Assembly (NCBI GenBank): GCA_963837585.1
Contig: CAWINX010000003.1
Location: 3,098-67,097, forward strand
Direction of reading: 5' to 3'
DNA length: 64,000 nucleotides
Origin: an uncultured Solirubrobacterales bacterium
GTDB taxonomy: Bacteria > Actinomycetota > Thermoleophilia > Solirubrobacterales > 70-9
A program made the position numbers and the translations under genes. Numbering within the stretch: the first letter of the stretch is position 1; every line of letters starts with the position of its first letter. The notes beneath the pieces were generated by a model that saw only the letters and a list, made by a program, of their open reading frames with translations, was not told the origin of the DNA and did not search any database. Positions 3,071-61,878 of the stretch are shown in pieces.

Positions 3071-3088
3071 GGGGGTGGTCGTCCCGCC

Positions 3089-3307
3089 CCGGTGTAACGC
3101 GTAAGTGGGGAAATAGCCCACCTACGCGTTACACCGTGGGTGAGGGCGGTCTGATCCCTTCTCGGTGTAACGCGTAAGTGGGCTGAGAGGCCGCCAACGC
3201 GTTGCACCGAGGGTGGAGAGTCGATCGTCAGTCCGGTGTAACGCGTGATCGTCAGCCCGGTGTAACGCGTAAGTGGGCTGAGAGGCCGCCAACGCGTTGC
3301 ACCGAGG
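3089..3307. repeat. Cluster of REP-like palindromic elements (core GGTGTAACGCGTAAGTGGG ... CCCACCTACGCGTTACACC)
   Basis: Hairpin copies at 3089-3136, 3162-3210 and 3257-3305, plus a half copy at 3233-3246. The 3163-3212 and 3258-3307 segments are identical. The cluster is intergenic. Small ORFs here (LTRYT / RCNA peptides) are repeat artefacts. Confidence 0.85.
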
Positions 3308-3419
3308 CAGGGGCGGCCCGCCCTCTAACCTTCCGGTCATGCCCGCCCAGGCCTATGCCGGCAAGGAGTGCGTCTGCCAACTGCGCAAGGGGATCTGCGA
3401 CCAGTCCTGCGTGCGCGAC

Positions 3420-5998: not shown

Positions 5999-6119
5999 CG
6001 GTGTAACGCGTAGGTGGGCAAATAGCCCTCTTATGCGTTGCACCGGCAAGGAAGACTTGGGATGTCATCAGCGGTGTAACGCGTAGGTGGGCAAATAGAC
6101 CACCTACGCGTTACACCGG
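5999..6119. repeat. Two more copies of the GGTGTAACGCGT REP-like palindromic element
   Basis: Copies at 5999-6046 and 6072-6119 (CGGTGTAACGCGTAGGTGGGCAAATAGACCACCTACGCGTTACACCG). Same family as 3089-3307. Intergenic. Confidence 0.85.
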
Positions 6120-24695: not shown

Positions 24696-24730
24696 CCAGA
24701 GGTCGCGAGCCCCGCTGTACCATCTGGGCG

Positions 24731-29079: not shown

Positions 29080-30347
29080 GACGCGCGTCCTGCTCAAGAA
29101 CGCCGAGGACCCGGAGCTGCGCACCCTCGCCGGCTACAAGCGCTACGGCGGCTACGCGACCCTCGAGAAGGCCTACCGCGAGATGGAGGCCGACGAGGTG
29201 CTCAAGGAGCTCGAGGACTCGGGCCTGCGCGGCCGCGGCGGCGCCGGCTTCTCGATGGGCAAAAAGGCCTCCTTCCTGCCGCGCGGCGGAGAGATGAACA
29301 AGTACCTCTGCTGCAACGCCGACGAGTCCGAGCCCGGCGCCTTCAAGGACCGCGAGCTGATGCAGCGCAACCCCCACCAGCTGATCGAGGGGATCGCGAT
29401 CGCGGCGATCGCGGCGGGCGCCGGCCACGCCTTCATCTTCATCCGCGGCGAGTACGACCTCCAGGCCGACATCCTCGACGCCGCGGTCGCCGAGGCCTAT
29501 GAGGCCGGCTACCTCGGCGAGAACATCCTCGGCAGCCGGCGCAGCCTCGAGCTGGTCGTCCACCGCGGCGCCGGCGCCTACATCTGCGGCGAGGAGACGG
29601 CGCTGCTCGACGCGCTCGAGGGCAAGCGCGGCAACCCGCGCCTCAAGCCTCCCTTCCCGGCGGTGCAGGGGCTCTACGGCGGGCCGACCCTGATCAACAA
29701 CGTCGAGACGCTCTCCAACGTGCCGGGGATCGTCGCCAACGGGGCCGAGTGGTTCCGCGGCTTCGGCACCGAGCAGTCGCCGGGGACCAAGGTCGTCTCG
29801 ATCTCCGGCGGCGTGCGGCGCCCCGGAAACTACGAGGTCGAGCTGGGCGTGCCGACCCGCGAGCTGATCTACGACCTCGCCGGCGGCCCCGAGGAGGGCC
29901 ACGAGGTGAAGGCCTTCTATCCCGGCGGCTCCTCCTCCCCGGTCCTCACCGCCGACGGGCTCGACCTCCCCTACAGCTTCGAGGCGATGGCCGAGGCGGG
30001 CTCGATGCTCGGCTCGGGCTCGATCATCGTCGCCGACGACCGCGTCTCGATCCCCCACATGGCGCTGCGCACGGCGCGCTTCTACCACCACGAGTCCTGC
30101 GGCAAGTGCACCCCCTGTCGCGAGGGGACGAACTGGACGGTGAAGATGCTGGAGCGGGTGGTGCGAGGCGAGGCGACGCCGATGGACCTCGACATCATCA
30201 GCTCGGTCCAGGAGAACATCATCGGGCCACTGCCTCTGCGTGCTGGGCGACTCGATGGCGATGCCGGTCAGCGCCATGGTGCGGAAATTCCGCGACGAGT
30301 TCGAAGCTGTGATCGCCGCCGGCCAGGCCGAGGCGGTGGCGGCGTGA
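29072..30347 (+). CDS. nuoF: NADH-quinone oxidoreductase subunit F; apparent +1 insertion near 30225-30230
   Basis: MPETRVLLKN...GLRGRGGAGFSMGKK (FMN site)...ESCGKCTPCREGT are in the ORF 28814 frame. The C-terminal CLCVLGDSMAMPVSAMVRKFRDEFEAVIAAGQ is shifted by one base (GGGCCACTGC). The stop forms a GTGA overlap with nuoG. Confidence 0.9.
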
Positions 30348-31262
30348 GCGGCAAAGAGATCACCCTGATCATCGACGGGCGCGAGGTCGACCGCGACCGA
30401 GGGCGAGATGCTCCACGACGCGGCCAAGCGAGGCGACGTCGAGATCCCGGTCTTCTGTTACGAGCCGAAGCTGGGCGAGCCGGTCGGCGCCTGCCGGATG
30501 TGCCTGGTCGAGATCGAGGGGATGCCGAAACTGCAGACCTCCTGCTCGACCCCGGTCCGCGACGGGATGGTCGTCCACACCCGCACCGACCAGGTCAAAG
30601 GCGCGCAGAGCGCCGTGGTCGAGTTCCTGCTCGTCAACCACCCGCTCGACTGCCCCGTCTGCGACAAGGGCGGCGAGTGCCCGCTGCAGGACATCTCGAT
30701 GGGCTGGGGCCCCGGCAAAAGCCGCTTCACCGACCAAAAGCGCCACTTCCAGAAGCCGATCGAGCTCTCGCCGCTGATCGCGATCGACCGCGAGCGCTGC
30801 ATCCTCTGCTACCGCTGCGTGCGCTTCAGCCAGGAGGTCGCCGAGGACGAGCAGCTGCAGCTGCTGGAGCGCGGCGACCGCTCCTTCGTCGGCACCTTCG
30901 ACGACCGCCCCTACATCGCCCCCTTCCACGGCAACATCACCGAGCTCTGCCCGGTCGGGGCGCTGACCTCCTACACCTACCGCTTCCGCGCCCGGCCCTG
31001 GGACATCGAGCAGGCCGGCTCGGTCTGCACGCTCTGCCCGAGCCAGTGCAACGTCAGCTTCACGGTCCGCGACGAGCAGGTGAAACGGGTGCTGGGACGC
31101 GACAACGCCGAGGTCGACGACGGCTGGCTCTGCGACCGCGGCCGCTACGGCTTCGAGATGTTCGCGTCCGAGGAGCGAATCGACGGGCCGCGCCTCAAGG
31201 GCGGCGCGCGCGACCGACTGGGAGACGGCGCTCGCCAAGGCGGCCGAGGGCCTACGCGATTA

Positions 31263-31296
31263 CGAAGTTGACCCTGCTATAGGGAGGTCAACTTCG
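31263..31296. repeat. 34-bp palindrome (11-13-bp arms, AT-rich core) inside nuoG
   Basis: CGAAGTTGACC-ctgctataggga-GGTCAACTTCG, read directly. It is read through in frame (DYEVDPAIGRSTSK) and is locally AT-richer than the gene. Confidence 0.7.
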
Positions 31297-31704
31297 AAAT
31301 CGTCGAAGAGTGGCGTCGCGGCGATCGTCGGCGACGCCTCCAACGAGGAGGGCTACCTGGTCCAGAAGCTGATGCGCGAGGCGCTCGGCTCGCCCCACGT
31401 CGAGTCGCGGGCGGCGGGCGGCCCGAGCCGCGAGGACCTCGTCCGCCTCTCCCAGCCCGAGATCTCGGCGAAGGTCCGCGACATCGACGACGCCGACGCG
31501 ATCCTCGTCCTCGGCACCGATCCGCTGCACAGCAGCCCGATCCTCGACCTCCGCATCCGCAAGGCGATCCGCCGCAACGGCGCCCGCCTCGCGGTGGCCA
31601 CCGAACGCCCGACGGCGCTCGACGGCGGCGCCGAAGCGGTGGCCCGCTACGCCCCGGGCGGCGCCGGCGCCTTCCTCGCCGAACTAGCGGCGGTGCTGGC
31701 CACT

Positions 31705-31808
31705 GCCGGGGCCCCCTCCTCACTCGCAACTCGTCGAAGTGACGCCGAGGGGCTGTCGCCCGAAGCTCAGTCCTCCTCCCGCGCAAAACGTTCGGAGGGG
31801 GCCCCGGC
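31705..31808. repeat. 104-nt element with perfect 15-bp terminal inverted repeats, in frame inside nuoG (copy 1)
   Basis: GCCGGGGCCCCCTCC ... GGAGGGGGCCCCGGC. It translates without a stop as GAPSSLATRRSDAEGLSPEAQSSSRAKRSEGAP between conserved NuoG blocks. Near-identical to the copy at 32571-32674. Confidence 0.85.
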
Positions 31809-32038
31809 AGTGGCCGACATGCTCCGCAGCGCCGAACGCGTCGTCGTCGTCTGGGGCGAGCGGATCGGGCGCGAGCAGGCGCCGTCGCGGCCCTGCTCGA
31901 CGTGGCGGCGGCACTGAACATCGCCGACACCGACGGCTCCGGCCTCCTGGAGATCCCCGACGCCACCAACGCTCGCGGCCTGCGCGAGGTCGGCTGCCTC
32001 CCCGACGCCGGCCCGGGCCTGACCGAGCCGAGTGCACG

Positions 32039-32081
32039 GTTGATCTCCCATACGGAGGAGAACCATGCACTCGTCGGAAAT
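32039..32081. repeat. 43-nt imperfect hairpin inside nuoG, coincident with a frame change
   Basis: GAGTGCACGGTT ... AACCATGCACTC (11/12 complementary arms). NuoG switches from frame 0 to frame 2 across it. Confidence 0.55.
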
Positions 32082-32570
32082 CGACGGAGGAGATCCGCGC
32101 CGCGCTGGAGTCGGGCGAGCTGAAGTCAGTCGTGCTCTTCGGAGTGGACCCGCTCCGCGACTTCCCGGACACCGAGGCCTGGAAGCGCGCCCTCCAGGCC
32201 GCCGACCACGTCGATCTGCCTTCTCGATGTTCGAGAACGCCACGACCGCCATCGCCGACGTCGTCCTCCCGCTGGAAACCCACGCCGAAAAAGACGGCAC
32301 GGTCACGCACCCGGACGGCCGCCTCCAGCGCGTCCGCCCCAGCGCCTCCCGCCCAGGCGACATCCGCCCGAACGTCCAAGTCCTCGCCGACCTCTCGTCG
32401 CTTCTCGGCCACGACACCGGCATCCACTCCCAGCCCTCGGCCTTCGCCGCACTCACGGACGACGTCGCTTTCTACGCCGGCATCGACGGACTCGGACATC
32501 GGCGGCCGCGGGCATCCGCTGGCAGGACGGTCCCTCGGCCTCGAAACTGCCCACCTTGGGCGAGGAGGGC

Positions 32571-32674
32571 GCCGGTACCCCCTCCTCACTCGCAACTCGT
32601 CGAAGCGACGTCGAAGTGCTGTCGCCCGAAGCTCAGTCCTCCTCCCGCGCAAAACGTTCGGAGGGGGTACCGGC
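32571..32674. repeat. 104-nt element with perfect 15-bp terminal inverted repeats, in frame inside nuoG (copy 2)
   Basis: GCCGGTACCCCCTCC ... GGAGGGGGTACCGGC. It translates as GTPSSLATRRSDVEVLSPEAQSSSRAKRSEGVP within ORF 32556..32993. Confidence 0.85.
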
Positions 32675-32989
32675 GCCCTCGCTCAAGCTCGGCACGTACA
32701 GAGACCTGTGGGCCGGGCCCGATCACCGAACTGAACCCACCGCTGAGATTCCTGACGCCCCAGCAACGAGTCGAGCTGTCACCGGCCGACGCCGAACGGT
32801 TGGAGCTGCGAAGCGGCGACGAGGTCAGCTGTGGCCCAAAACGGCGTCCAGCGTGCGCGCCAAGGTCGCGATCAAGGAGCGAGTGAGCGAAGGGGTTTGC
32901 TTCTTGGTCGAAGGGACAGCGACCGAGGGCAACGCAAATGCACTGCTGAACGGTGGGCCGGTCGAGGTGCAGATCAGCAAGGAGCTTGC

Positions 32990-33988
32990 GTGATCCCGAT
33001 CGCCGACCCGAGCTACGCCGAGGCGACCTGGGTGATGATCGTCAAGTCGCTGGTGATCTTCGGCGTGATCTTCGGGATCCTGCCGCTGATGACGGTCCTG
33101 GAGCGCAAGCTGATCGGCCGCTTCCAGCATCGTTACGGCCCCAACCGGGTCGGCCCGTTCGGCATCCTGCAGCCGCTTGCCGACGTCGGCAAGCTGCTCG
33201 GCAAGCAGGCGTTCCGGCCCGCCAACGCGGTGCCGATCCTGTTCATCCTCGGCCCGCTGCTGCCGGTCTTCTCCGGGGTGCTGGCGCTGGCGATCATCCC
33301 CTGGGGCAACGTCCAGGACGGCGTCGGGCTCTACGGGATCGACGTGCCGATCGGCATCCTCTACTTCTTCGCGGTCGGCTCGATCGCCTTCTACGGGCTG
33401 GTCCTCGGCGGCTGGGGCTCGGGCTCGAAATACAGCTTCCTCGGCGCGATGCGCTCGGCCGCGCAGCTGATCTCCTACGAGGTCTCGATGGGGCTGGCGC
33501 TGCTCGGCGTGGTGATGATGAGCGGCTCGCTCTCGCTGGTCAACGTGGTCGAGGCGCAGGGACAGATCTGGTTCATCATTCCCCAGTTCGTCGGCTTCCT
33601 GATCTTCATGATCGCCGGCTTCGCCGAGACCAACCGCGCCCCGTTCGACCTGCCGGAGGCCGACGCCGAGTTGGTCCAGGGCTTCATGACCGAGTACGGA
33701 GGAATGCGCTTCGGCAGCTTCCTGCTGGTCGAGTACATGGAGATCATCGTCGTCTCCGGGATCGCCGCGGCGATGTTCCTCGGCGGCTGGATGGGGCCGG
33801 GCCCGGGCTGGCTGGACCCGATCTGGATGCTGGCGAAGATGCTCTGCCTCGTCCTCGTCTTCATCTGGGTGCGGGCGACCGTGCCGCGGCTGCGCTACGA
33901 CCAGCTGATGAGCCTCGGCTGGAAAGTGCTGCTGCCGCTGGCGACCCTCAACGTCCTGGTCACGGCCGTGCTGGTGGTGGTGACGTGA
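32990..33988 (+). CDS. nuoH: NADH-quinone oxidoreductase subunit H
   Basis: GTG at 32990 in a GTGA overlap with nuoG. Intact. ERKLIGRFQHRYGPNRVGPFGILQPLAD...FAETNRAPFDLPEADAELV. Confidence 0.92.
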   Translation: MIPIADPSYAEATWVMIVKSLVIFGVIFGILPLMTVLERKLIGRFQHRYGPNRVGPFGILQPLADVGKLLGKQAFRPANAVPILFILGPLLPVFSGVLALAIIPWGNVQDGVGLYGIDVPIGILYFFAVGSIAFYGLVLGGWGSGSKYSFLGAMRSAAQLISYEVSMGLALLGVVMMSGSLSLVNVVEAQGQIWFIIPQFVGFLIFMIAGFAETNRAPFDLPEADAELVQGFMTEYGGMRFGSFLLVEYMEIIVVSGIAAAMFLGGWMGPGPGWLDPIWMLAKMLCLVLVFIWVRATVPRLRYDQLMSLGWKVLLPLATLNVLVTAVLVVVT

Positions 33989-34530
33989 GCGAAGAGTTCC
34001 CCTACCTGAAGGACCTCGAGGTGATCGAGGTGCAGCGCGGGCCCGAGCCGGGCGGCCCCGGCGGCGCCTGGCGCTCCTTCCGCGAGACGCTGCGCGGGCT
34101 GAAGACGACGATGGCGCGGCTGATCGAGGGGCCGCTGACGATCCAGTACCCCGAGGAGAAGACCCCGGTCTACCCGCGCTTCCGCGGCCGCCACAAACTC
34201 CACAAGTTCGAGGACACGGGGCTGGAGAAGTGCGTCGGCTGCTCGCTCTGCGCCGCCGCCTGCCCGGCCGATTGCATTCGCGTCGTCGCCGCCGAGAACA
34301 TCCCGGGCGACCGCGTCTCGGCCGGCGAGCGCTACGCCGCGGTCTATGAGATCAACCTCTCGCGCTGCATCTTCTGCGGCTACTGCGAGCTGGCCTGCCC
34401 GTTCGACGCGATCACGATGGGCCACGACTACGAGATGGCCGACTACGACCGCGACGACCTGATCTTCACCAAGGAGATGCTGCTCGCCGAGTCGCTCGAG
34501 CGGGCGCCGCTGAAAGCGGAGGGCGAGTAG
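33985..34530 (+). CDS. nuoI: NADH-quinone oxidoreductase subunit I
   Basis: GTG at 33985 (GTGA overlap). Two 4Fe-4S motifs, [12 protein letters not shown] and [12 protein letters not shown]. Confidence 0.92.
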
Positions 34531-35094
34531 TGGAGGCGGTGCTCTTCTTCCTGGCGGCGATCGGCGCCCTCGGCGGCGCGATCGGCGTGGTCGCGCTGCG
34601 CAACCCCTTCTACAGCGTGCTGGCGCTGATCGTCCACCTCTTCTCCCTCGCCGTCCTCTTCCTGCTGCTGACCGCGGCCTTCGTCGCCGCCGCGCAGGTG
34701 GTCGTCTACGCGGGGGCGGTGATGGTCCTCTACGTCTTCGTCGTCGCCTACGTCGGGGGCGACGAGGAGTCGGCCTGGGAGCCGATCCCCGGCCAGCAGT
34801 TCCTGGCGCCGCTGCTCGGCGTCGCCGTCTTCGTCGAGCTCTCCGTAGCCGTCCTCGCCTCCTCCCTGCTGGCGCTCGGCCACGACGGCCCACACGTCGG
34901 CCCCGGCTTCGGCAACCCCGCCGCGATCGGACGCCTGCTCCTAGAACGATTCCTGGTGCCCTTCGAGGCTTCTTCGATCCTGCTGCTCCTGGCGGCAGTG
35001 GGCGCTGTGGTGCTCGCCGGACGCCGCGACTCGTCGGGGGGGTCGCAGGGGGGTCCTCCGAACACTCAAGCGAGGCTCCTGCCGAGCGTTCTGA
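34530..35094 (+). CDS. nuoJ: NADH-quinone oxidoreductase subunit J (3' end uncertain; as sequenced it is fused in frame to nuoK)
   Basis: ORF 34530..35432 reads through from NuoJ ([33 protein letters not shown]...) into NuoK with no stop. A 1-nt change in the G7 run at 35036-35042 would terminate NuoJ at TGA 35092-35094. Confidence 0.8.
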
Positions 35095-35112
35095 GGAGCC
35101 CCTGCGACCCCC
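35038..35112. repeat. 75-nt GC-rich palindromic element at the nuoJ/nuoK junction
   Basis: GGGGGTCGCAGGGGGGTCCTC ... GAGGAGCCCCTGCGACCCCC. The interior CCTCCGAAC... resembles the reverse complement of the nuoG 104-nt element end. Confidence 0.7.
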
Positions 35113-35132
35113 GTCCCCGTCGGAGGTGCGTC

Positions 35133-35432
35133 ATGAGCATCGAGTGGTACATCGTCCTCTCCTCGCTGCTGTTCACAGTAGGCGCGGTAGGGGTCCTGAT
35201 CAGGCGCAGCCCGGTCGTGATCCTGCTCTGCCTCGAGCTGATGCTGAACGCCGGCAACCTGGCGCTGGTCGCCTTCAGCCGCATGGTCGGCAACCAGCAG
35301 GGGCAGGTCTTCGCCCTGGTGGTGATGGTCGTCGCCGCCTGTGAGGTGGTCGTCGGCCTCGGCCTGATCGTCGCGATCTTCCGCCGCAAGATCCCCCTCA
35401 ACGTCGACGACCTGCGGGAGCTGCGCGGATGA
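35133..35432 (+). CDS. nuoK: NADH-quinone oxidoreductase subunit K
   Basis: ATG at 35133, preceded by [53 protein letters not shown]... Confidence 0.9.
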
Positions 35433-37438
35433 GCGCCACAACCTGGGCCTGGCTGGTCCTGCTCTTCCCGCTGCTCGGCTCGATCGCGATCGCGCTCGGC
35501 TTCCGGACGATCCCGACCCGCGCCGCCGGGATCATCGGCACCGTCGCGATCGCCGCCGCCTTCGCCTGCGGGATCGGCGCCCTGCTCAGCCTGCTCGGCG
35601 AGTCGCCCGACGCCCGCCACCACGCCTCCTCGCTGTGGGACTACGCGAGCGCCGCCGGGCTCGACATCAAGCTCGGCATCTTCGTCGACCCGCTCTCGGT
35701 CTTCATGGTCCTCGTCGTCACCGGCGTCTCGACCCTGATCCACCTCTACTCGTTCGGCTACATGCAATCCGACGAGGGCTACCACCGCTTCTTCAGCTAC
35801 CTCAACTTCTTCGTCTTCTCGATGCTGCTGCTGGTCCTCGCCGGCAACTTCGTCCTGCTGATCGTCGGCTGGGCCTTCGTCGGCTTCGCCTCCTACGCGC
35901 TGATCAGCTTCTGGTACCGGCGCACCACCGCGACCCGCGCCGGGATGAAGGCCTTCGTGATCAACGTGGTCGGCGACATCGGCCTCGTCCTCGCCGCCCT
36001 GCTGATCTTCCGCGAGCTGGGGACCTTCGACTACCAGGCGGTCTTCGCCAAGGCGCCCCACGTCCTCCACACCAACGGCTGGACGGCGACCGCGATCTGC
36101 CTGCTGCTGCTGGTCGGCGCCTTCGCCAAGTCGGCGCAGCTGCCGCTGCACACCTGGCTGCCGGACGCGATGGAGGGCCCGACCCCGGTCTCCTCGCTGA
36201 TCCACGCGGCGACGATGGTCACCGCCGGCGTCTACCTGATCGCCCGCACCCACGTCCTCTTCCTGCTCGCCCCGACCGCCGCCGACATCGCCGCCTTCAT
36301 CGGGCTGGCGACGCTGCTGGTCGCCGGGACGATCGCGCTGGTGATGACCGACCTGAAGCGGGCGATCGCCTACTCGACGATGAGCCAGATCGGCTACATG
36401 GTGGTCGGCGTCTCGATCGGCGCCTACAGCGCCGGGATGTTCCACCTGATGACCCACGCCTTCTTCAAGGCGCTGCTGTTCATGGCGGCCGGCTCGATCA
36501 TCGCCGGGATGGCGAACGAGCAGAACATCGACAAGATGAGCGGCTTCGGCAAGGCGATGCGCTTCACCTCGATCACGATGCTCTGCGGAGGGCTGGCGCT
36601 GGCCGCCTTCCCCGGCACCTCGGGCTTCTTCTCCAAGGACGAGATCCTCGCCTACGCGACCGCGCGCGGAGGCATGTACCTGACCTTCACCGTGCTCGGC
36701 TACGTCGGCGCGCTGCTGACCGCGATCTACACCTTCCGGCTGATCTTCCGCGTCCTCCCCGGGGTGCCGTGCAAGGAGGCGCAGGAGCTGATCGACACCG
36801 GCCACATAGCCCACGAGGCCCCGTTCAACCCGGCGACCGGCGAGGCCGAGGACACCGAGGTCGGCTTCCCCGGCGCCGAGCACCACATCGCCGAGCAATC
36901 GGCGCCGATGCGGATCGCGATGGGCGTGCTCGCCTTCCTGGCGCTGTTCGCCGGCTTCGTCCAGGTGCCGGGGGTCGACGAGACGATCACCAAGTTCCTC
37001 GACCCGGTCTTCGCCGACTCGCCGCTGGCGACGATCGTGCCCTCGGTCTCCGCCTCCTGGGCCGGGCTGGCGATCGGCGCCGCCATCTCCGTAGCCGGGA
37101 TCGCGATCGCCTACTGGGTCTACGTGCTGCGGCCGGGGACCTCGGCGGCGCTGATCCGTCGCCTCGGGCCGCTGCACACCTTCCTCGTCAACAAGTGGTA
37201 CTTCGACGAGGCGATCGACATCCTCGTCGTCCGCCCCGCCCTGGCGATCGGCCGCTTCGCCAACCGGACCTTCGAGCGGGTCGTCGTCGACGGGCTCGTC
37301 AGCGGCACCGAGGACGTCGTCGGGGGTGGCGGCCGCCTCGTCCGGATCGTGCAGAGCGGCTACCTGCGCGGCTACGCGCTGCTGCTGGTCGCCGGCTTCG
37401 CCGGGCTCGCCCTCTACTTCTTGCTGGCGAGCTCATGA
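35429..37438 (+). CDS. nuoL: NADH-quinone oxidoreductase subunit L
   Basis: Intact 669-aa ORF with an ATGA overlap with nuoK. The antiporter-like subunit pattern is present (WEGVGLASYLLI-type region [14 protein letters not shown]; [12 protein letters not shown]). Confidence 0.92.
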
Positions 37439-38938
37439 CCAACCTGCTGCTCTGGACACCGCTCGCCTTCGGCCTCCTCGGCTTCATGCTGCCGAAGCGC
37501 TCCGCCGGCTGGTGGGCGACGGCCGGGGCCCTGGTCACCCTCGGCCTGGCGATCGCGATGCTGGTCGGCTTCGACTCCGGCGCCAAGGGCCTGCAGGACA
37601 CCGTCGACGTGCGCTGGATCCCCGGCCTCGGCGTCGACTACAGCCTCGGCGTCGACGGGCTCAACGTCTTCCTGATCCTGCTGACCGCGGTGCTGTGGGC
37701 CGGCGCCACCGCCTTCGCCGCCTTCCGCGAGCAGGAGCGCCCCCACCTCTTCTTCCTGATGATGGCGCTGGGCGAGACCGCGACCCTGGGCTCCTTCCTC
37801 GCCCAGGACCTGCTCCTCTTCGTCCTCTTCTTCGACCTGATGCTGGTCCCGTTCTACTTCCTCTTCGGCGCCTGGGGGACCGACCGCGAGGACGGCCCGA
37901 GCGCCGCGGCGGCGACCCTGAAGATGATCGTCTACACGCTGATCGGCTCGCTGCTGATGCTGGTCGCGGCGATCGCCACGGCGATCCTCTCCGCCCACGG
38001 CGGCAACATCAGCTTCTCGATCGAGCACCTCGCCCAGCACCCGCTCGGCGTCGGCAGCCAGCGCTGGATCTTCTGGTTCTTCGCCGCCGCCTTCCTGGTC
38101 AAGATGCCCGCCTTCCTCCTGCACGGCTGGATGCCCGACGCCTACCGCGCCGCGCCGCTGCCGGCGCTGGCGGTCTTCTCCGGCGTGCTCGCCAAGGTCG
38201 GCGCCTACGGCTTCCTGCGGATCGTCCTGCCGCTCTTCCCGGCCGCGACGATCCAGTTCCAGGAGGTGCTGCTGGTGATCGCCCTGGCCTCGATCCTCTA
38301 CGGCTCGGTGATGGCCTTCACCCAGACCAACGTGCGACTGATCGCCGGCTACTCCTCGGTCGCCCAGCTCGGCTTCATCACCGCGGGGATCTTCGCCCTG
38401 CGCGCCGACGGCGCCGACGGGGCGGTCCTGCAGATGGTCAACCACGGCCTCGTGGTGGCGCCGATCTTCATCGTCGTCGCGATCCTCGCCGAGCGCTCCG
38501 GCAGCGAGGACCTGCGTGAGATGGGCGGGATGGCGATGCGGGCCCCGGTGCTGGCGGCGCTCTTTTTGATCGTCACCCTGGCGACCCTGGCGATGCCCGG
38601 GTCGGCCAACTTCATCGGCGAGTTCTACATCCTCAACGGCCTCTTCCAGGCGAAGATCGTCTTCGCCTTCATCGCGATCAGCGGCGTCGCGATGTCGGCC
38701 TACTACGCGCTGCGCCTCTACCAGCGCACGATGCACAACCGCAAGCCGGAGGGGCTGGCCTCGCGTGAGATCGGCTGGCGCGACGGCATCGTCCTCGCCC
38801 CGCTGGTCCTCTGCATCATCGGCCTCGCCCTCTACCCGCAGCTGATCCTGAAGCGGACCGACAAGGTCGGTCCAGGCGCAGGTCTCCGCCGTGCAGAAGC
38901 CCGACACCCCGTCCGCGCACCTCGCCACGACCCGATGA
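37435..38938 (+). CDS. nuoM: NADH-quinone oxidoreductase subunit M; apparent frameshift near 38861-38870 removes its stop
   Basis: [17 protein letters not shown]... lies within ORF 35635..40437. After ...LILKRTD, a shifted frame gives SVQAQVSAVQKPDTPSAHLATTR followed by TGA in an ATGA overlap with the nuoN start. As sequenced, M and N form one ORF. Confidence 0.88.
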
Positions 38939-40437
38939 ACTTCCACGCCCCCCACCTCGACTACGCCGGGCTCTCGCCCGTGATCGCCCTCACCGCGGGG
39001 ATCTGCGTGGTGCTGTTGACCGCGGTCTTCGAGCGGACCAAGCGGATGGCGCCCTGGCTGACCCTGGCGGTCCTGGCGGTGACGGCGGCGCGACTGATCA
39101 TCCAGTGGAACGACCCGACCGACCTGGTTTCGGGAGCCCTGCGAATCGACGGCCTGGCGATCACGATCTCCCTGCTCGCGGTCCTCGCCGCCGCATTCAC
39201 GGTCCTGCTCTCGATCCGCGAGCCGGCCGCCGAGGAGGCGGGACTGGGCGAATACCACGTCCTGCTACTCGGCTCGGTGCTGGGGATGACGCTGCTCGCC
39301 CAGGCGCAGAACCTGGTCAGCGCCTTCGTCGCGATCGAGACCCTCTCGATCCCCCTCTACATCCTCTGCGCGACCAACCTGCGCCGCGAGCGCTCGCTCG
39401 AGTCGGGGCTGAAGTACCTCGTCGTCGGCTCGCTCGGCTCGGCGACGCTGCTCTACGGGATGGCCTTCCTCTACGGAGGCTCGGGCTCGACCGACTTCGC
39501 CGGCATCGCCGCCGGAATCAGCCAGAAGGGCATCCTCGGCGACCCGCTCGTCCTGGTCGGGATCGCGATGGCCGCGGTCGGCCTCGCCTTCAAGACCTCG
39601 ATAGCCCCCTTTCACCAGTGGACGCCGGATGTCTACGAGGGCGCCCCCACCCCGATCACCAGCTTCATGGCGGTGGCGACCAAGGCGGCGGCCTTCGCCC
39701 TCTTCGTCCGCTTCTTCGATGTCGCCCTGGCGCCGCAGGCAAGCGACTGGCAGCCGGCGCTTGCGGTCCTCGCCGCCACCTCGATCGTTGTCGGCAACGT
39801 CGGCGCGCTCGGCCAGCGCTCGCTGAAGCGGATGCTCGGCTACTCGGGTGTCGCCCAGGCCGGCTACATCCTCGGCGGCCTGGTCGTCGCCAGCCAGTCG
39901 GGAGTGGACGCCCTCGTCTTCTACCTCGCCGCCTACACGGCGATGAACCTCGCCGCCTTCGCGGTGATCGTCGCCCGCGAGCGAGAGACCGCCTACGGCG
40001 ACGACATCCGCGCCGTCGAGGGACTCGGTCGCGAGCGCCCGCACCTGGCCTGGCCGCTGACCATCTCGATGCTCGGCCTGGCGGGGATGCCGGCGACCGC
40101 GGGCTTCATCGGCAAGCTCTACCTGATCGAGGCGCTGGTCCAGGGCGACTACACCTGGCTGGCCGTCTTCATCGCGGTCGGCACGATGATCTCCCTCGCC
40201 TACTACCTGCCGGTGATCGCGGCGATGTGGATGCGCCCCGGCGAAGAGGAGTCGGCGACGGCCATGCCGGCGATCGCCGGCGCCGCCCCGGAGGCCGACC
40301 CGATCGACCCCGAGGCGGGCGACCGCATCTACCTCACCGGCCCCGCCCTGCTCGCCGCCGCCGCGGTGATCTTCTTCGGCATCCTGCCCCAGCCGCTCGT
40401 CGACTTCGCCCAGCACGCGGGCTCCGCGCTCTTCTGA
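38935..40437 (+). CDS. nuoN: NADH-quinone oxidoreductase subunit N
   Basis: MNFHAPHLDYAGLSPVIALTAG... to the end of ORF 35635..40437. It contains the typical NuoN block KTSIAPFHQWTPDVYEGAPTPITSFMA. Confidence 0.9.
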   Translation: MNFHAPHLDYAGLSPVIALTAGICVVLLTAVFERTKRMAPWLTLAVLAVTAARLIIQWNDPTDLVSGALRIDGLAITISLLAVLAAAFTVLLSIREPAAEEAGLGEYHVLLLGSVLGMTLLAQAQNLVSAFVAIETLSIPLYILCATNLRRERSLESGLKYLVVGSLGSATLLYGMAFLYGGSGSTDFAGIAAGISQKGILGDPLVLVGIAMAAVGLAFKTSIAPFHQWTPDVYEGAPTPITSFMAVATKAAAFALFVRFFDVALAPQASDWQPALAVLAATSIVVGNVGALGQRSLKRMLGYSGVAQAGYILGGLVVASQSGVDALVFYLAAYTAMNLAAFAVIVARERETAYGDDIRAVEGLGRERPHLAWPLTISMLGLAGMPATAGFIGKLYLIEALVQGDYTWLAVFIAVGTMISLAYYLPVIAAMWMRPGEEESATAMPAIAGAAPEADPIDPEAGDRIYLTGPALLAAAAVIFFGILPQPLVDFAQHAGSALF

Positions 40438-41461: not shown

Positions 41462-41849
41462 ATGCTCCACCACGTCTCGATCGAGGTCGAGCCTGGCGAC
41501 GTCGAGGGCGCTATTGAGTTCTGGGAGCTGCTCGGCTTCCAGCGGATCGAAGCGCCCGCCGAGCTCGGCGGTTACGTCACCTGGCTGGAGCGGGCCGGGA
41601 CCCAGATCCACCTGATCCACGCCGAGGGGGCGACCGTGCCGCCGCTCGGCCACCCGGCGGTCGTCGTCGAGGACTTCGAGGCGACCTTCGCCGCTCTCGA
41701 CGCCGCCGGCTTACGAGCCGGAGCGCCACCGCGAGCTGTGGGGCGAGGCACGCGCCTTCGCGACGATGCCCGGCGGTCAGAAGGTCGAGCTGATGGCCGC
41801 TCCGCCCAAGGCGGTTCCGCGGAACCGCCTTGGGCCGGGAGCTAGATGA
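41462..41849 (+). CDS. Glyoxalase/VOC-family protein; apparent frameshift near 41708-41714
   Basis: MLHHVSIEVEPGDVEGAIEFWELLGFQRI...GHPAVVVEDFEATFAALDAAG is in ORF 41462..41845. It then shifts to YEPERHRELWGEARAFATMPGGQKVELMAAPP. The stop overlaps the next ATG. Confidence 0.7.
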
Positions 41850-54190: not shown

Positions 54191-54252
54191 CGCAACTGAA
54201 GGCAAGGCAGGGGTTTGACTTCGAAGCACGCCCCGCGGACAGTCTGAACATG

Positions 54253-54286
54253 CCAGAGGGGGCGGCCAATTGGCCGCCCCCTCTGG
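54253..54286. terminator. Perfect 34-nt palindrome between convergent genes
   Basis: CCAGAGGGGGCGGCCAA|TTGGCCGCCCCCTCTGG, read directly. No strong U-tract. Confidence 0.45.
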
Positions 54287-54315
54287 CAATAACGCCGTCC
54301 TGAGCTTGAGCCTGC

Positions 54316-57485: not shown

Positions 57486-57853
57486 CGCCGCGAGTGCTGA
57501 TCGCCGACGACTCCGAGACGATCCTGCTGCTGATGCGGACGAGGCTGGAGATGGCGGGCTACGACGTGGAGACCGCGATCGACGGCGAAGAGGTGATGGA
57601 GGCGGTCCACCGCAGGGGGCCCGACAGCGGCCCCGACATCCTCCTGCTCGACGCGATGATGCCCCGCAAGTCCGGCATCGACGCCCTGCGAGAGCTGCGC
57701 GCCGAGGGAGTCGACACCCCCGCTCTGATCGTCAGCGCCCACCAGGACGGCGAGGACGCCGCCGCCCCCACCGACCTTGAGGTGAGTGGCTACGTGGCCA
57801 AGCCGATCGACTTCGAGGCGCTGCTGGCGAGCATCGAAGAGCTGACTCGGTAG
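57482..57853 (+). CDS. Single-domain (CheY-like) response regulator
   Basis: Intact 123-aa ORF with an ATGA overlap with the kinase. VLIADDSETILLLM...LLLDAMMPRKSGIDAL...VAKPIDFEAL. Confidence 0.9.
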   Translation: MTPRVLIADDSETILLLMRTRLEMAGYDVETAIDGEEVMEAVHRRGPDSGPDILLLDAMMPRKSGIDALRELRAEGVDTPALIVSAHQDGEDAAAPTDLEVSGYVAKPIDFEALLASIEELTR

Positions 57854-57947
57854 GGACGGCGGGCATCCCCCTCGTCTGACAAAACGCCGCCCTTATAGGG
57901 GCGGCGTTTTTGAGTATCCGCCAGCCGAGGGGGATGCCCGCCGTCCC
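57853..57947. repeat. 95-nt nested hairpin with a perfect 22-bp outer stem enclosing the terminator hairpin
   Basis: GGGACGGCGGGCATCCCCCTCG (57853-57874) and CGAGGGGGATGCCCGCCGTCCC (57926-57947) are exact reverse complements. The hairpin starts at the last base of the response-regulator stop codon. Confidence 0.85.
57881..57911. terminator. Bidirectional rho-independent terminator
   Basis: AAAACGCCGCCC-ttat-AGGGGCGGCGTTTTT has a GC-rich perfect stem flanked by an A-run and a T-run. It lies between convergent genes (RR on plus, large HTH protein on minus). Confidence 0.75.
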
Positions 57948-58017: not shown

Positions 58018-61000
58018 TCAGGGACGCATGTGTTCGTCACCGATATCTGCGCGATCTAATTCGACAAACGCCAAACGTGCGTTTCGAACCCAATCCTTGA
58101 GACGTGCCTCGTCGATTGTGCCATCATCGCGACTGCCAGGGAGCCCTCTCCAGTGGTTCAGTACCCACCAGGCATGTTGAGCAAGTGCCTCGTCGTGTTT
58201 GCCCAGCTGCCGGCGTGGTTGCATTCTTGCCGCGATAAACCCGTGATACCAGATCAACAAAAATGCCAGGATCGTTAGCCAGTAGGGAATAGAGCGCCCG
58301 AGGACGACGACGACTGTGTTCCAAGAGACGGAAGAAAGCAAACTCGTAACGAGCGAGTTTGTCTGCTGAGTACTTTTTAGTTTCAAGGAAGTCGAGCAAG
58401 ACTCCGATTTCATAGCCCGGAGACTGCGAGGGCGCATCGTCCTGATCTGAAACCAGCGCGGCATCGAGAACCTGCTCGACTAGCTCGATCTCGATGGCCG
58501 CAGGTTTTTCCTTCGTTCCATGAAGGACTGCCGTCAGCATGTCAACGGCTGACCAGGGACGATCGTGACGAAGTAGCTCCTGAGTCGCGTACTCGGCATC
58601 TTGCTCCTTTACGCGCCAGGGGTTCATGGACGACCAGTAGGCATCCGAAAGGTCCGGCTCCTGTCCTCTGATGGCGTCCCATAGCTCACGGGTTGCCGGG
58701 GCGGCCAGCGCCAAGGCATTACGCCGCCTGAGACTTTTTGCCTCGGGCCGTTCCATAATTTCAAGCAGCCAGGGAACCCCGTGCTCGCTGAGTTTGCGTG
58801 AAGCCCAACCCTGAGCAACGTTGCTAAGTGCGGCTTTGTTTGAATCGAGCCACCCCATTAGGTTCCCGGTCAGTTCGTCAGGAGCCACCTCGCCGACAAC
58901 CCAACCCAGCTGGTTCGGTGCGGTACTTCGTTCGGCTAACGCCTGCAAGCCATCAAGGGAGGCAGAATCGAGCGTTTCCTTGACGGCCTGGACGCGCAAT
59001 TCAGCTAGCTTCTGGTCATATCCGTCGTCATTCAGGTCCACATCTGGAAGGTCTGGGTGCCAGTCGAACAGGTAGCCGAAGCGAGCAACGTCGGATTTTG
59101 GCTCAAGTTGATCGGCGATGGCTTGCATGCGCGACAATGGTTGCTCGCCCATTGACCAGTCAGCGGATGGGAACTTGCGATGGCGCGCGATCTCTCGATC
59201 AATTCGCTCCCATAGCTCGAGTCGATCTGCGGGCGTAAAGGCTGCTGAATCGACAAACTGTTCCAGGGACTCAAGCAAACGCTCACGCTCGGCAGGTGGC
59301 AGGGGTCCGAAGAACTCGCTGAGCTTTGCCCAGCGTTGGGAGTCGGTACCGGCTAGTTGGATTGCTAGTCCAACGAGCTGGCTAATGAATCCAACCCAGT
59401 CGGCCGCCAAGACGTTACGGTTTTCCGGCTTCCAATCGTGGAACTTTGGTGAGGAAGGCGGAGACGCAATGGCATGGTTGCTTGGCCAAAGCTCAAGTAC
59501 CAACTCCCATGCAACTTCCGGTTGCTGGCTGCCGATTTGCTCAAGCGCCTGAACCTTGGCGTCCATTGAGGCTGATGTATGTCGAATCCAACCCACCAGC
59601 ACGGACGCCAGGCTCGCCAAGGGGCGGTTAGAGAGTTGGCCTCCGGGATCAATTGCGGAAAGCCTTGCTAGAGCGCGCGTGGCATCGAATAGGTAGTCTG
59701 GCGACCAGCAAAGAACCTCAAGTGCCCACAACAGCCCGGTATGCGGCGATGAACTGAATAGCGCCGAGGTCTGCTCACCGTCTTGAAAGGTAATTCTCAG
59801 TACCGGTTGGTCACGATCTAGATCAACATGGACAGCATCCAGAAACTCCTCAGGTGCGGCCTCCGCAAGAAGTCGGAGCTCCTCTGAGAGAGAGCACCAA
59901 GTCCGTCCGCTCGAATCATCATTTGCACGGCTGAGAATCTCCCGCACAGCGCGGCGTGCGTGGTCGACACCACTCGCCCCGTCTGCGAGCGTCGCAGCAC
60001 CGGAGGCTGACCCGAGCAGCGCAATCCCTTGAGCCATTCCCTGTCGTAGGACCGACGAATGCTTGCGGACCGCGCCTCGCAGGCTGGCCATCGGTCGATG
60101 ATTCGGCTCCAGTTCGAGCTTCGGGTCTGCTTCCAGCAGAACCTCGGTGACTGCTTCGTACCACCGGGCCAGATCGGTAGCGGTTAGGGCGTCTCGAAGG
60201 AGGAGGAAGGCCTCGTCGGCCGACGTCAGGTGCCACTGCGAACCTGGATGGACAAAAGGTGGATCATCCATCGTCAGCCAATGCAGCAGGTCACGCTCAA
60301 TTGTGGGCCATGACTTGTCCACCACCCGACTCACGATGTCTAGGTCATTCTCGTTTGTCTCCCATGCTCCAACTAGCACGAGAGGCGCGAAGGTCGATGC
60401 GTCCGGAGGCTGCGACCACGCGGGGCGCGCGAAAGCCGGATCGCGTGCCAGCTTACGAATCAGAGACGGCATGCTTCGGCGCGCCTGGGCAGCCAGACGG
60501 TATGCGGCATCCGAGTCCGCGCCAGCGGCATCGAGAACGGACTCGAGCGCTTTCGTCGCAGCCTCTCTGTCTGGGCGCGGGAGGTTTATGTGCTCCCCCT
60601 GCACAACTTGCTCCCAGCGAAGCGGCACGACAACGTAATGTCCGTGTTCGATCGCAGAGGAGAAGTTAGCCCCGTCGAACATCGGCAAGAGCGTCATTCG
60701 CCCGGGTTGCACCACCACGCGATCCCAAACCTCTTCCGATGAGACAACGAGGGGCGGCTGAGGACTGTGGCCCTCTCGACCCATCATCTCGATCGTCGCG
60801 CAAACGAACGCTATGGCATCGTCGCGCCATGCCGCCTGGACAGCGACAACTTCGGGGTGTTCTCGAAGGAATTTTGCCAGCCGATCACTCTCGTACGTTC
60901 GCCCTGCAAGGAAGAGGCTCCCCGGAAGTTCGGGCTCAGTCCGGGCCTGGAAGCGCTGCCACCACTGCTCCAGCGTTTCGACATCTCGTGGCCGGCGCCC

Positions 61001-61297
61001 CAGTTGCTCCGAGATCCACTGATGTACGGCCGGTGTCTGTTGGAGCCAGCCCCGTAGCTGCGTGCGTCCAATCTCGGGGTCAATCGAGCCGCGTTCCTCG
61101 CCAAGCCCGGATGCCACGCGTCGCCTCGTTGGTCCGAAGCAAGCGCATCCGCAACGCAGGAACCGGGAACCGGGAACTCGCGCCGACTGGAGGATGCCCT
61201 CTCTCGCCCAGTTGCGAACCGTGTTCTCATGCACTCCTAGGCGTCGCGCGGTCTCGCGGACATTAAGGAAATCGCCGCCGGTTTCGTCTACAATCAT
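58018..61297 (-). CDS. Large (about 1,090 aa) protein with N-terminal MerR/excisionase-type HTH and an uncharacterised helical body; apparent frameshift near 58200-58240
   Basis: ORF 58124..61297 (1057 aa) starts MIVDETGGDFLNVRETARRLGVHENTVRNWAREGILQSARVPGSRFLR (HTH_17-like). The plausible C-terminus (...DEALAQHAWWVLNHWRGLPGSRDDGTIDEARLKDWVRNARLAFVELDRADIGDEHMRP) continues in ORF 58018..58464. I saw no Walker A, nuclease, SIR2 or TIR motif. GC is visibly lower than in the flanks. Confidence 0.7.
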
Positions 61298-61556: not shown

Positions 61557-61878
61557 GACTGGTCGAGCCGAGTCAGTCGCTCCTTGATCTCAGGGTTTCG
61601 AAAACTGACACATCAGGCCCCGCAGAATTCGAACCTGTGACCTGTTCGTAGACCGATCCGGGAATCGAGCCGCTTTCGACACAGCCAAGCGACATCTTTC
61701 TGAAGGCTCGTAACTTGCGGGACGGGTGCCCGTAACTCGGGCGCTTGTGGGGCCGGTCGGGGGTGTCATCCGGGTGCGGCGGTCTCTTTTTCGCACTGAT
61801 CGACTCAGCGAGAGACGTCCAACTTAAAGGCGAAAAAGGCAGCACTCGGAGGACACCCCCGACCGGCCCTTCAACCAC
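61557..61878 (-). other. Structured non-coding tract with degenerate tRNA-like T-loop motifs and a ~102-nt nested stem-loop
   Basis: The minus strand contains GGTTCGAAT (about 61627-61635) and CTCGATTCC (about 61659-61667), but neither sits in a foldable cloverleaf. At 61758-61859, GGGGGTGTC/GACACCCCC (9 bp) encloses CTTTTTCGC/GCGAAAAAG (9 bp). Confidence 0.4.

Follow-up and report, generated by a model that had tools for sequence, protein, structure and literature searches.

What kind of repeat can place a long, perfect hairpin twice inside the gene of a respiratory enzyme subunit and leave the protein readable on both sides? The question is raised by a 64,000-nt stretch of DNA (hereafter the window) from an uncultured Solirubrobacterales bacterium (GCA_963837585.1, contig CAWINX010000003.1). 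Its nuoG gene, which encodes subunit G of NADH-quinone oxidoreductase, carries two copies of a hairpin repeat. An earlier sequence-only reading described them as 104-nt elements bounded by terminal inverted repeats and inserted in frame in the manner of the Rickettsia palindromic elements (RPEs). Our analysis suggests that they probably belong to a lineage-restricted hairpin repeat of the Solirubrobacterales/Thermoleophilia that resembles RPEs and repetitive extragenic palindromes (REPs) and owes its perfect arms, its homogenised copies and its inversions to template switching or gene conversion. The distribution of the family, its orientation changes and its presence/absence polymorphism show that it behaves as an evolutionary unit of its own, tolerated inside proteins. 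As far as its sequences tell, the family occupies few recurrent slots: two NuoG loops, the nuoJ/nuoK junction, positions just after stop codons and a few protein linkers.

The two nuoG hairpins and their family

The two copies were 92% identical over 104 nt (31705-31808 and 32571-32674), and the repeat unit including the full stems was about 118 bases. The stem of copy 1 was a perfect 22 bp (31698-31719 / 31794-31815) and that of copy 2 a perfect 21 bp (32565-32585 / 32660-32680), each enclosing a 74-nt spacer. The outermost 6-7 bp differed between the copies and were complementary within each (GGCCACT/AGTGGCC in copy 1, GAGGGC/GCCCTC in copy 2). The two bases adjoining the core showed a compensated difference, GG/CC in copy 1 and TA/TA in copy 2. 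The end motifs (28 and 29 nt) occurred exactly twice each in the window, with none expected from 100 shuffles. A hidden Markov model (HMM) of the family gave two matches over the 64 kb, which were the two nuoG copies (Table 1). Either strand folds, with a predicted energy of -62 to -84 kcal/mol (z from -6.3 to -7.8 relative to shuffles).

Both copies were free of stops in the local NuoG frame and encoded the peptide G(A/T)PSSLATRRSD(A/V)E(G/V)LSPEAQSSSRAKRSEG(A/V)P. The peptide of copy 1 stood between ...FLAELAAVLATA and VADMLRSAERVVVVWGE, and that of copy 2 between IRWQDG...LGEEGA and APSLKLGTYRDLW. Since nuoG is broken by about ten indels, the term "in frame" applies only locally, to each element together with its flanks. 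The near-identity of two 104-nt copies was thus borne out at 92%, and so was, in the local frame, the claim of an open peptide that interrupts recognisable NuoG sequence. The inverted repeats were perfect as had been stated, at lengths of 22 and 21 bp in place of the 15 bp given.

Relatives of the repeat were sought with a 19-nt core pattern (GCAAAACGTTCGGAGGGGG) in one genome per species from 185,579 species. The scan gave 87 matches in 79 loci, each examined over 8-22 kb, and nearly all of them were in Solirubrobacterales metagenome-assembled genomes (MAGs) from independent projects and assemblers. The copies were ascertained by the exact 19-mer, and related copies are not phylogenetically independent. 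The family unit was about 105-130 nt long with a G+C content of about 70%. Its inner stem of 8 bp (CCCCCTCC/GGAGGGGG) was invariant or nearly so in 84 copies. Next to it lay an asymmetric internal loop, likewise conserved, with TC(A/T)CTCG following the left core and CGCAAAACGTTC preceding the right core. TC(A/T)CTCG was conserved although it lies outside the search pattern. The interior (20-70 nt) was subfamily-specific, and the core-to-core lengths of all copies were 42, 86-87 and 89-93 nt. Beyond the core the stem extended by a median of 14 further bp, which varied among copies yet remained complementary. The subterminal 8-bp core plus approximately CCGG was all that the arms had in common; the outer 8-14 bp varied and covaried.

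The covariation was tested on an arms-only alignment of 84 distinct copies, with the partner slid by 1-3 columns as controls. The proportion of paired stem cells was 90%, compared with 44-57% in the slid controls. The covariation score reached 0.41 (controls at most 0.13), and 16 of 24 stem pairs had changes on both sides. G-U pairs were rare to nearly absent, and mismatches were common. Because both arms are coding, the covariation of the stem was visible as linked replacements in the protein alignment (T<->V, S<->L, I<->M, DT with VS, and P->S with G->E). Judged from these alignments, what is preserved is the pairing of the nucleic acid, and the amino acids follow. RNAalifold supported the outer stem alone; the subfamily interiors align too poorly for inner helices. 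The outer 8 nt of the stem showed an identity of 0.64 at the same site across genomes (0.71 at nuoG site 1; 0.82 at the RHPAGY site described below) and of 0.43-0.50 between different sites, so that the outer stem is partly site-specific. The stem mismatches were also used in an attempt to decide whether one strand folds, either as RNA or as single-stranded DNA. An apparent 60:15-18 excess of A-C over G-T, on the plus strand of the element and independent of host orientation, was dropped because it came from three positions of one recurrent arm haplotype (13 versus 8 distinct position/type combinations).

Direct repeats at the hairpin boundaries, as left by target-site duplication, were at the level of the shifted control among the 86 copies analysed (2-nt repeats in 3/86, 3-nt repeats in 1/86). 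The picture of an element with fixed terminal inverted repeats could therefore not be upheld: target-site duplications were not found, the outer stem was variable, and the lengths of the shared tracts differed among genomes. A permissive Rfam search of 31500-35300 returned chance miRNA-hairpin matches only (17-27 bits against gathering scores of 50-97).

The core-to-core length was 42, 87, 90 or 93 nt in all 62 nuoG copies, always a multiple of three, and it was a multiple of three in all seven nuoJ/K copies. The copies behind stop codons measured 86-93 nt, and only 5 of the 13 were multiples of three. The proposal that copies in coding sequence keep the frame thus agreed with the lengths, which always fitted the codon in coding sequence and did not do so intergenically. 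In-frame hosts were nuoG at two sites, the C-terminus of NuoJ, and linkers of an ABC ATPase, a membrane-anchored protein and an MprF-like protein. The encoded peptide of about 30-37 aa is probably disordered, and its sequence depends on the orientation of the element (...PSSL...AKRSEG... or ...PSERFA...SEEG...).

The placement in the protein was assessed on an AlphaFold2 model of P0003, a NuoG homologue with both inserts. Low-confidence coil was predicted at residues 310-318, 458-486, 543-577 and 734-806. These four segments of the C-terminal half corresponded to the four palindromic insert positions of nuoG, the element inserts being 458-486 and 734-806. Each segment was bracketed by confident helices or strands, and the C-terminal half was well predicted. 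The model as a whole was poor (mean predicted local distance difference test score, pLDDT, of 55), and the support for a loop location is therefore moderate. NuoG of M. smegmatis (8e9g) aligned on both sides of site 1 and not through it, and the alignment ended before site 2. The inserts may thus sit in variable surface loops compatible with the fold, as the sequence-only reading had proposed to look for; their coincidence with low-pLDDT coil in the P0003 model gives this moderate support.

Slots, orientation and likeness between copies

All but two of the loci carried the labels Solirubrobacterales, Conexibacteraceae, Thermoleophilia, or unclassified Actinomycetes/Actinomycetota. One exception was a MAG labelled Chloroflexota with the element in the same nuoG site-1 context. 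The other was a match in Polyangiaceae that lacked the left arm and is probably due to chance. The viral contigs scanned with the core pattern gave no match.

The 86 copies analysed fell into five kinds of position. The gene nuoG held 62 of them, with 31 forward and 2 reverse copies at site 1 and 10 forward and 19 reverse copies at site 2. One forward and six reverse copies lay at the nuoJ/K junction, 13 copies lay a few bases after a stop codon, and four lay in linkers of other proteins. An NlpC/P60-like gene ending ...RHPAGY* preceded eight of the 13 post-stop copies. The host proteins outside Nuo were a fused double ABC ATPase, an MprF-like protein, and membrane-anchored proteins with a Pro/Ser-rich tail in two genomes. 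A search with the forward and reverse peptides for further host proteins gave four candidates and one match and was uninformative. Two tandem family copies were seen in L044 (4480-4680), in intergenic DNA downstream of a phosphofructokinase-like gene; the upstream copy was diverged (GGGTCCCTCCTTACTCGCAACTCGTCGATTGGGAG...).

The slots differed in state among relatives. When the 120 best NuoG homologues were aligned, G(T/A)PSSL...AKRSEG(V/A)P stood at site 1 in most of them, and several, including the closest relative P0001, had no element there. At the DNA level, site 1 was free of the element in 10 loci, of which nine were distinct (one region of one genome was covered twice). An empty allele typically read ...AAALGGAENVATPLAETLR... 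The homologues formed three groups at site 2, with the forward element, with the reverse element, or with unrelated sequences. The reverse element read PSERFAREE...RRVASEEG and was the exact reverse complement. The closest relative of the window (chromosome OY969702.1, L001; about 96% nucleotide identity in the 5' half of nuoG) had no site-1 copy and a site-2 copy in the opposite orientation. The unrelated site-2 sequences were, in the DNA, other perfect hairpins with arms of up to 27 nt. One of them, with 26-nt arms GGCGCCCGGGGCGGGGTCCCCAAAAC / GTTTTGGGGACCCCGCCCCGGGCGCC, was perfect in each of four genomes and differed between them. The presence of several palindrome families at site 2 marks it as a hot spot.

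A pre-existing palindromic target was not found by eye in the nine distinct empty site-1 alleles, L001 excepted, and no systematic scan for inverted repeats was made. The "empty" site 1 of L001 (11330-11375) was itself a quasi-palindrome of 18 nt, CCGGGGAGGCCTCTCCGG; before it stood GCCGGCACC, similar to the left arm of the element. The site may be what is left of a deleted copy. Comparison of the filled window with the empty L001 at site 1 and the J/K junction did not give exact insertion boundaries, because the flanks adjoining the hairpin are themselves rewritten.

Copies within a genome resembled one another. Pairs at different sites of one genome had a median identity of 0.75 (0.94 for the window pair, 0.95 in L055), and same-site pairs between genomes had a median of 0.64. 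The likeness within genomes also held for nuoG and nuoJ/K copies in opposite orientation. The subfamily types of sites 1 and 2 agreed within genomes; for example, subfamily C was present at both sites in 6 of the 7 genomes with C at site 1. The tract shared by the copies was 104 nt long in the window and of another length in L055; such variation among genomes fits conversion tracts and not fixed transposon ends.

Template switching is reported to homogenise the arms of inverted repeats and to invert their spacers (PMC8604942, PMC7202029), and it can make quasipalindromes perfect (PMC7202029). The corresponding signature, a spacer inverted between conserved arms (PMC8604942), was observed here in three genome pairs. 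The 77-nt spacers of the copies in L004 (5504-5628, forward) and L029 (4214-4338, reverse) were 100% identical when inverted and 56% identical in the same orientation, with arms 92% and flanks 77% identical. An identical inverted spacer between flanks of only about 77% identity indicates a strong nucleotide-level constraint or a recent exchange between lineages. In the pairs L065/L029 and L004/L072, the arms were 94% and 96% and the inverted spacers 92% and 90% identical, respectively.

These comparisons change the earlier picture of insertion events in this genome. The insertions are not recent, and most NuoG orthologues of the order contain the same element, inverted repeats included. The orthologues did not show the peptide as an ancestral sequence free of inverted repeats, since their peptide-coding element has them. 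The notion of a colonising palindromic family is upheld by its occurrence in other genes and in intergenic DNA, in both orientations and with presence/absence polymorphism; the copy number is low.

A further palindrome, at the nuoJ/nuoK junction of the window, had been suggested to belong to the same family. The junction does contain a real palindromic insertion of 77 nt (about 35034-35121) that is absent from L001. It displaces the nuoJ stop, so that nuoJ runs in frame with nuoK in one 300-aa open reading frame (ORF, 34530-35432); the two genes overlap by 4 nt in L001. The family HMM did not match this palindrome, and CTCCTCA...GTTCGGAGG and the general architecture are all that it shares with the family. 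Membership was therefore not sustained, and on this short motif the palindrome is at best a possible distant relative. Bona fide copies of the family occupied the junction in seven other loci.

The host gene and other palindromes of the window

The nuo operon, a 14-gene transcript, extends over roughly 25-40.4 kb of the window. The best NuoG homologues were 73-83% identical, and those with a source name were from Solirubrobacterales. Relative to L001, the approximately ten frame-breaking indels of nuoG lie outside the two elements; they are mostly single inserted bases outside homopolymers. Their density was about 10 times higher in nuoG than in the surroundings. Further single-base indels in or beside the neighbouring genes were located at 24724, 26251, 27327, 30227, 38863 and 40518. 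Mapped by coordinate onto the L001 gene calls, the indel at 26251 lies in nuoB and that at 27327 at the 5' end of nuoD; those at 30227 and 38863 are close to the 3' ends of nuoF and nuoM, respectively. The substitutions between the window and L001 were mostly synonymous, with 11 amino-acid differences over 277 aa and a nucleotide identity of about 96%. The indels are therefore read as probable assembly errors and not as decay of complex I, a view that comes from the sequence comparison with L001. A link between the hairpins and this local surplus of apparent assembly errors is possible. The genes nuoM and nuoN lie in one open frame, apparently because one base was inserted at 38863, some 70 nt ahead of the stop of nuoM.

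Table 1. Positions of the hairpins, their host gene and other features in the window
Feature	Position	Strand	Remarks
REP-like hairpin arrays	3082-3311 and 5999-6118		CGGTGTAACGCGTA(A/G)GTGGG...CCCACCTACGCGTTACACCG; 19-bp perfect stem, 9-nt loop
nuoG (NADH-quinone oxidoreductase subunit G), host gene	30344-32993	+	About 10 indels relative to L001
Small unrelated palindrome in nuoG	31257-31302	+	17-nt arms, 94% complementary; encodes ...DYEVDPAIGRSTSKSS...
Hairpin copy 1, nuoG site 1	31698-31815	+	Family HMM match 31707-31806, E = 1.3e-19; peptide in local NuoG frame ATAGAPSSLATRRSDAEGLSPEAQSSSRAKRSEGAPAVA
Left core of copy 1	31712-31719	+	CCCCCTCC, then conserved TCACTCG; partner GGAGGGGG at 31794-31801, preceded by CGCAAAACGTTC
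Small unrelated palindrome in nuoG	32029-32073	+	20-nt arms, 80% complementary
Hairpin copy 2, nuoG site 2	32565-32680	+	Family HMM match 32573-32672, E = 3.9e-22; peptide in local NuoG frame EGAGTPSSLATRRSDVEVLSPEAQSSSRAKRSEGVPAPS
Palindromic insertion, nuoJ/nuoK junction	35038-35112	+	14-bp perfect arms, 35038-35051 / 35099-35112
nuoM and nuoN in one open frame	35635-40437		1600 aa
Loop-less perfect palindrome	41804-41835		32 nt
Loop-less perfect palindrome	54251-54288		38 nt, halves TGCCAGAGGGGGCGGCCAA and TTGGCCGCCCCCTCTGGCA
Nested hairpin	57853-57947		Outer arms 22 bp, perfect, GGGACGGCGGGCATCCCCCTCG / CGAGGGGGATGCCCGCCGTCCC
Low-G+C segment	58000-62000		57-61% G+C, about 70% elsewhere
ORF with N-terminal HTH_17/MerR-like domain	58124-61297	-	1057 aa; the domain is the only Pfam match
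Hairpin adjoining the 1057-aa ORF	61745-61874		36-nt arms, 86% complementary, 18 nt perfect

Perfect inverted repeats were frequent in the window as a whole (arm of at least 12 nt, loop of at most 100 nt), with 17 found and about 1.9 expected from shuffles. Two small palindromes in nuoG are unrelated to the family. The first was also present in L001, where its 17-bp stem is perfect, and it matched the P0003 coil 310-318. The second is part of 38 nt that are inserted relative to L001, and it matched the coil 543-577.

REP-like arrays occupy two intergenic regions that bracket the genes of an NAD-binding protein and an FMN reductase. No gene of a REP-associated tyrosine transposase (RAYT) was found beside them; the neighbouring ORFs encode the FMN reductase and NAD-binding proteins. 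The nested hairpin follows directly after a TAG stop, carries the same CCCCCTC/GAGGGGG motif in its outer arms, and encloses the terminator-like AAAACGCCGCCC-TTATAG-GGGCGGCGTTTT. The low-G+C segment behind it, with its long ORF and adjoining hairpin, may be a foreign or mobile island.

Explanations and comparison with known repeat systems

The preferred explanation is a DNA-level one. Template switching within the hairpin during replication would homogenise the arms and invert the spacer. Gene conversion between copies would homogenise the copies and leave exchange tracts of variable length. Such a process in place is suggested by the perfect arms with paired changes, the spacer flips and the homogenised copies, together with the lack of target-site duplications and fixed ends. 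The element could persist as a selfish or neutral unit that lands or survives only in tolerant loops, with its length kept a multiple of three. New sites might be seeded by a hairpin-recognising enzyme or by illegitimate recombination. By analogy with the REP-derived hairpins known as REPINs, which are moved by RAYTs (PMC3116915, PMC3337134), such an enzyme is a reasonable idea.

Several observations weigh against this explanation. The spacers of site-1 copies of the same length class (128 pairs) were compared with a conserved adjacent 90-codon stretch of nuoG. The spacer identity between genomes was 0.88, against 0.81 in the nuoG stretch overall and 0.66 at its third codon positions, and the spacer exceeded the third positions in 97% of the pairs. 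The figure is biased upward by the exact 19-mer search, of which 11 nt lie in the spacer, and by the choice of same-length pairs; after correction for the 11 fixed bases it was about 0.82-0.88, still well above the third positions. Conservation above the host gene is unexpected of a purely neutral remnant, and it would need selection on the DNA or repeated refreshment. Exact-core matches numbered 1-3 per complete chromosome, a count of exact 19-mers that passes over diverged copies. So low a number differs from the abundant RPE and REPIN families and could equally fit a few conserved functional sites. Template switching itself is deduced from patterns. A mobilising enzyme, target-site duplication or fixed end was not found, and the word "mobile" refers to the distribution only. 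The translation of intragenic copies as part of their host proteins is likewise suggested by frame conservation and not by proteomics.

A classical non-autonomous transposon, such as a MITE (a miniature inverted-repeat transposable element) or a RAYT-moved REPIN, would explain the nuoG copies as independent frame-preserving insertions, made by a transposase encoded elsewhere through cut-and-paste or single-strand "peel-and-paste". In its favour, the repeats form a family with inverted ends, they occur at unrelated loci and in either orientation, and the copies directly after stop codons are REP-like (PMC3733652). The invariant subterminal core and the conserved internal-loop motifs could form the recognition site of an enzyme, a requirement with which the conservation of the spacer is compatible. 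We nevertheless regard this origin as rather unlikely. Direct target-site duplication is absent (3/86 copies share 2 nt, as in the control), the outer stem is variable, partly site-specific and complementary, and the shared tracts differ in length among genomes. Among the 79 loci (8-22 kb each) there was no longer copy with a gene between its ends that could represent an autonomous insertion sequence (IS) relative, no RAYT stood next to the REP-like arrays of the window, and the copy number is low. Identical site-specific arms around a flipped spacer are more simply explained by inversion in place. A maintained DNA module is also conceivable, in which a hairpin-binding enzyme or recombination system of Solirubrobacterales recognises the core, similar to Shine-Dalgarno (SD) and anti-SD sequences, the internal loop and the spacer in either orientation. 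We consider such dedicated recognition unlikely; if true, it would make the repeat a vertically inherited "replicator" inside coding loops that rewrites the flanking codons to extend its own stem.

The hairpin could instead act as RNA in the mRNAs of nuo and other genes, with the peptide as a tolerated by-product. It might be a barrier to RNase III or exonucleases, a stabiliser or processing site of the 14-gene transcript, or a translational pause, and its core pairs an SD-like GGAGG with an anti-SD-like CCUCC. The hairpin is extremely stable, its stem covaries strongly, it recurs at the same three places of the nuo operon across the order, and the post-stop copies lie where stabilising hairpins are expected. 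A function of the stem alone would be unaffected by the orientation of the spacer. The spacer, however, is conserved in both orientations relative to transcription, including the 100% identical inverted copy. An RNA function dependent on the spacer sequence fits poorly with this, since inversion would lose it. The near absence of G-U pairs alongside common mismatches is more typical of symmetry at the DNA level. Several orthologues are without the element at one site or another, the same loop is taken up by unrelated palindromes in relatives, and Rfam gave no match. A functional RNA hairpin is therefore quite improbable in our view. It is highly improbable that the repeat is an ancestral NuoG linker peptide, kept for protein function, whose palindromy and second copy arose by internal duplication. 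Similar peptides do stand at the same positions in most NuoG orthologues of the order, but the same DNA occurs in intergenic regions and unrelated proteins, the reverse orientation encodes an unrelated peptide at the same site, and changes in the arms alter amino acids and preserve pairing. In addition, the nucleotide identity exceeds that of the third codon positions of the host, and several orthologues have no element. The many single-base indels relative to the closest relative, about 10 times denser in nuoG, might raise the suspicion of an artefact of assembly or sequencing, for instance a fold-back chimera in a long-read assembly prone to error. Dozens of MAGs, from separate studies and different assemblers (k141 megahit, SPAdes NODE and long-read contigs), have the same element at the same sites, as do 120 database proteins, which makes this possibility practically negligible.

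In-frame palindromic repeats have been studied mainly in Rickettsia. The present family is an independent system in free-living, high-G+C soil bacteria, spread over dozens of genomes. Its orthologous slots are found in different states, namely absent, forward, inverted, with another subfamily or with another palindrome family, and this range makes several questions directly testable. Among them are the coexistence of a stringent nucleic-acid structure with a protein in a single sequence, the way in which coding sequence is reshaped by template switching or gene conversion, and the status of such repeats as selfish, neutral or useful to the cell. In practical terms, the repeats add 30-70 non-homologous residues to a core respiratory protein and will confuse the annotation, alignment and phylogeny of MAGs.

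RPE-1 to RPE-10 (Ogata et al. 2000, 2002) are palindromes of about 100-150 bp found in frame in unrelated housekeeping genes (PMC10969869, PMC3733652). They are read through at positions compatible with the fold, occur also in non-coding DNA, have no known transposase, and reach 44 copies of RPE-1 in R. conorii (PMC10969869, PMC3733652). The present family likewise consists of in-frame palindromic repeats read through as extra peptides, with non-coding copies and no known transposase. The likeness is one of behaviour, in the sense of "works like" and not "member of"; a relation to the RPE sequences was not evident, no comparison with them having been made. The differences are considerable. The family has about 70% G+C, belongs to free-living soil Actinomycetota and was found only in MAGs of the Solirubrobacterales/Thermoleophilia type. 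It has 1-3 exact-core copies per chromosome, and the same few slots are reused across the order in both orientations. It has a long, perfect, covarying stem with a site-specific outer part, its spacer is more conserved than the host gene, and its copies within a genome evolve in concert. The claimed RPE likeness thus stood as regards in-frame palindromic behaviour. Rickettsia as the sole comparison did not, because in-frame palindromic repeats are known elsewhere (PMC3733652); beyond Rickettsia they were still treated as conjecture in a 2024 review (PMC10969869). No description of such elements in Actinomycetota/Actinobacteria, Thermoleophilia or Solirubrobacterales was found in literature searches, in agreement with the sequence-only reading, which knew of none for high-GC Actinobacteria.

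The GTAG/CGTC REPs (Di Nocera et al. 2013) lie mostly just downstream of ORFs; a minority lie inside ORFs, where they encode 20-80 aa (PMC3733652), sometimes twice in one gene (PMC3733652). Such in-gene REPs occur at lower frequency than RPEs in several Proteobacteria and Opitutus (PMC3733652, PMC10969869), and the REP survey makes no mention of Actinobacteria (PMC3733652). Unlike these REPs, the present family has no terminal tag, and its ends read GGTACC-CCCCTCC, ...GCCGGTA-CCCCCTCC / GGAGGGGG-TACCGGC... It forms one long hairpin with a 74-nt spacer and not a 20-40-bp REP or a REP dimer, and no RAYT/REPtron was seen. REPINs (Bertels & Rainey 2011) are non-autonomous hairpin elements of about 100 nt that consist of two inverted REPs and are extragenic, with tens to hundreds of copies (PMC3116915, PMC3337134). 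They are linked to a single-copy RAYT gene, a Y1 HUH transposase, flanked by REPs (PMC3116915; PMC3337134; bioRxiv 10.1101/2021.07.10.451892). The present family is similar in its hairpin of about 100 nt, its vertical inheritance and long persistence, and a conservation that suggests maintenance at the DNA level. It differs in that 13 of 86 copies are post-stop and at least 66 are in coding sequence, in its low exact-core copy number, and in that no RAYT was seen in the 8-22-kb loci and the window arrays.

Bacterial MITEs (Correia/NEMIS, ERIC, RUP, BOX) are small repeats bounded by inverted repeats, sometimes present in transcripts and with occasional in-frame fusions (PMC10969869). Fixed terminal inverted repeats, direct target-site duplications and a recognisable IS parent are features of MITEs, and none of them was found here, the IS parent having been sought in the 79 loci. 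The family thus lacks the target-site duplication and fixed ends that define MITEs and the tag that defines GTAG/CGTC REPs, and it seems to depart from REPINs in lying mostly in coding sequence at low exact-core copy number. The mitochondria of Nematomorpha provide another comparison. Their protein-coding genes, including those of complex I, contain long perfect inverted repeats, for which template switching was proposed (PMC6649704). Paired substitutions in the arms change the protein and keep the repeat perfect, and both arms encode conserved protein regions (PMC6649704). The perfect stems of 21-22 bp described here, up to 27 bp in relatives, with their paired amino-acid-changing substitutions, are similar. 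In contrast to the nematomorph repeats, they belong to a dispersed family with a conserved core and spacer that is added in variable loops and occurs also outside genes. The family therefore combines the RPE-like behaviour with the concerted arms of the nematomorph coding palindromes.

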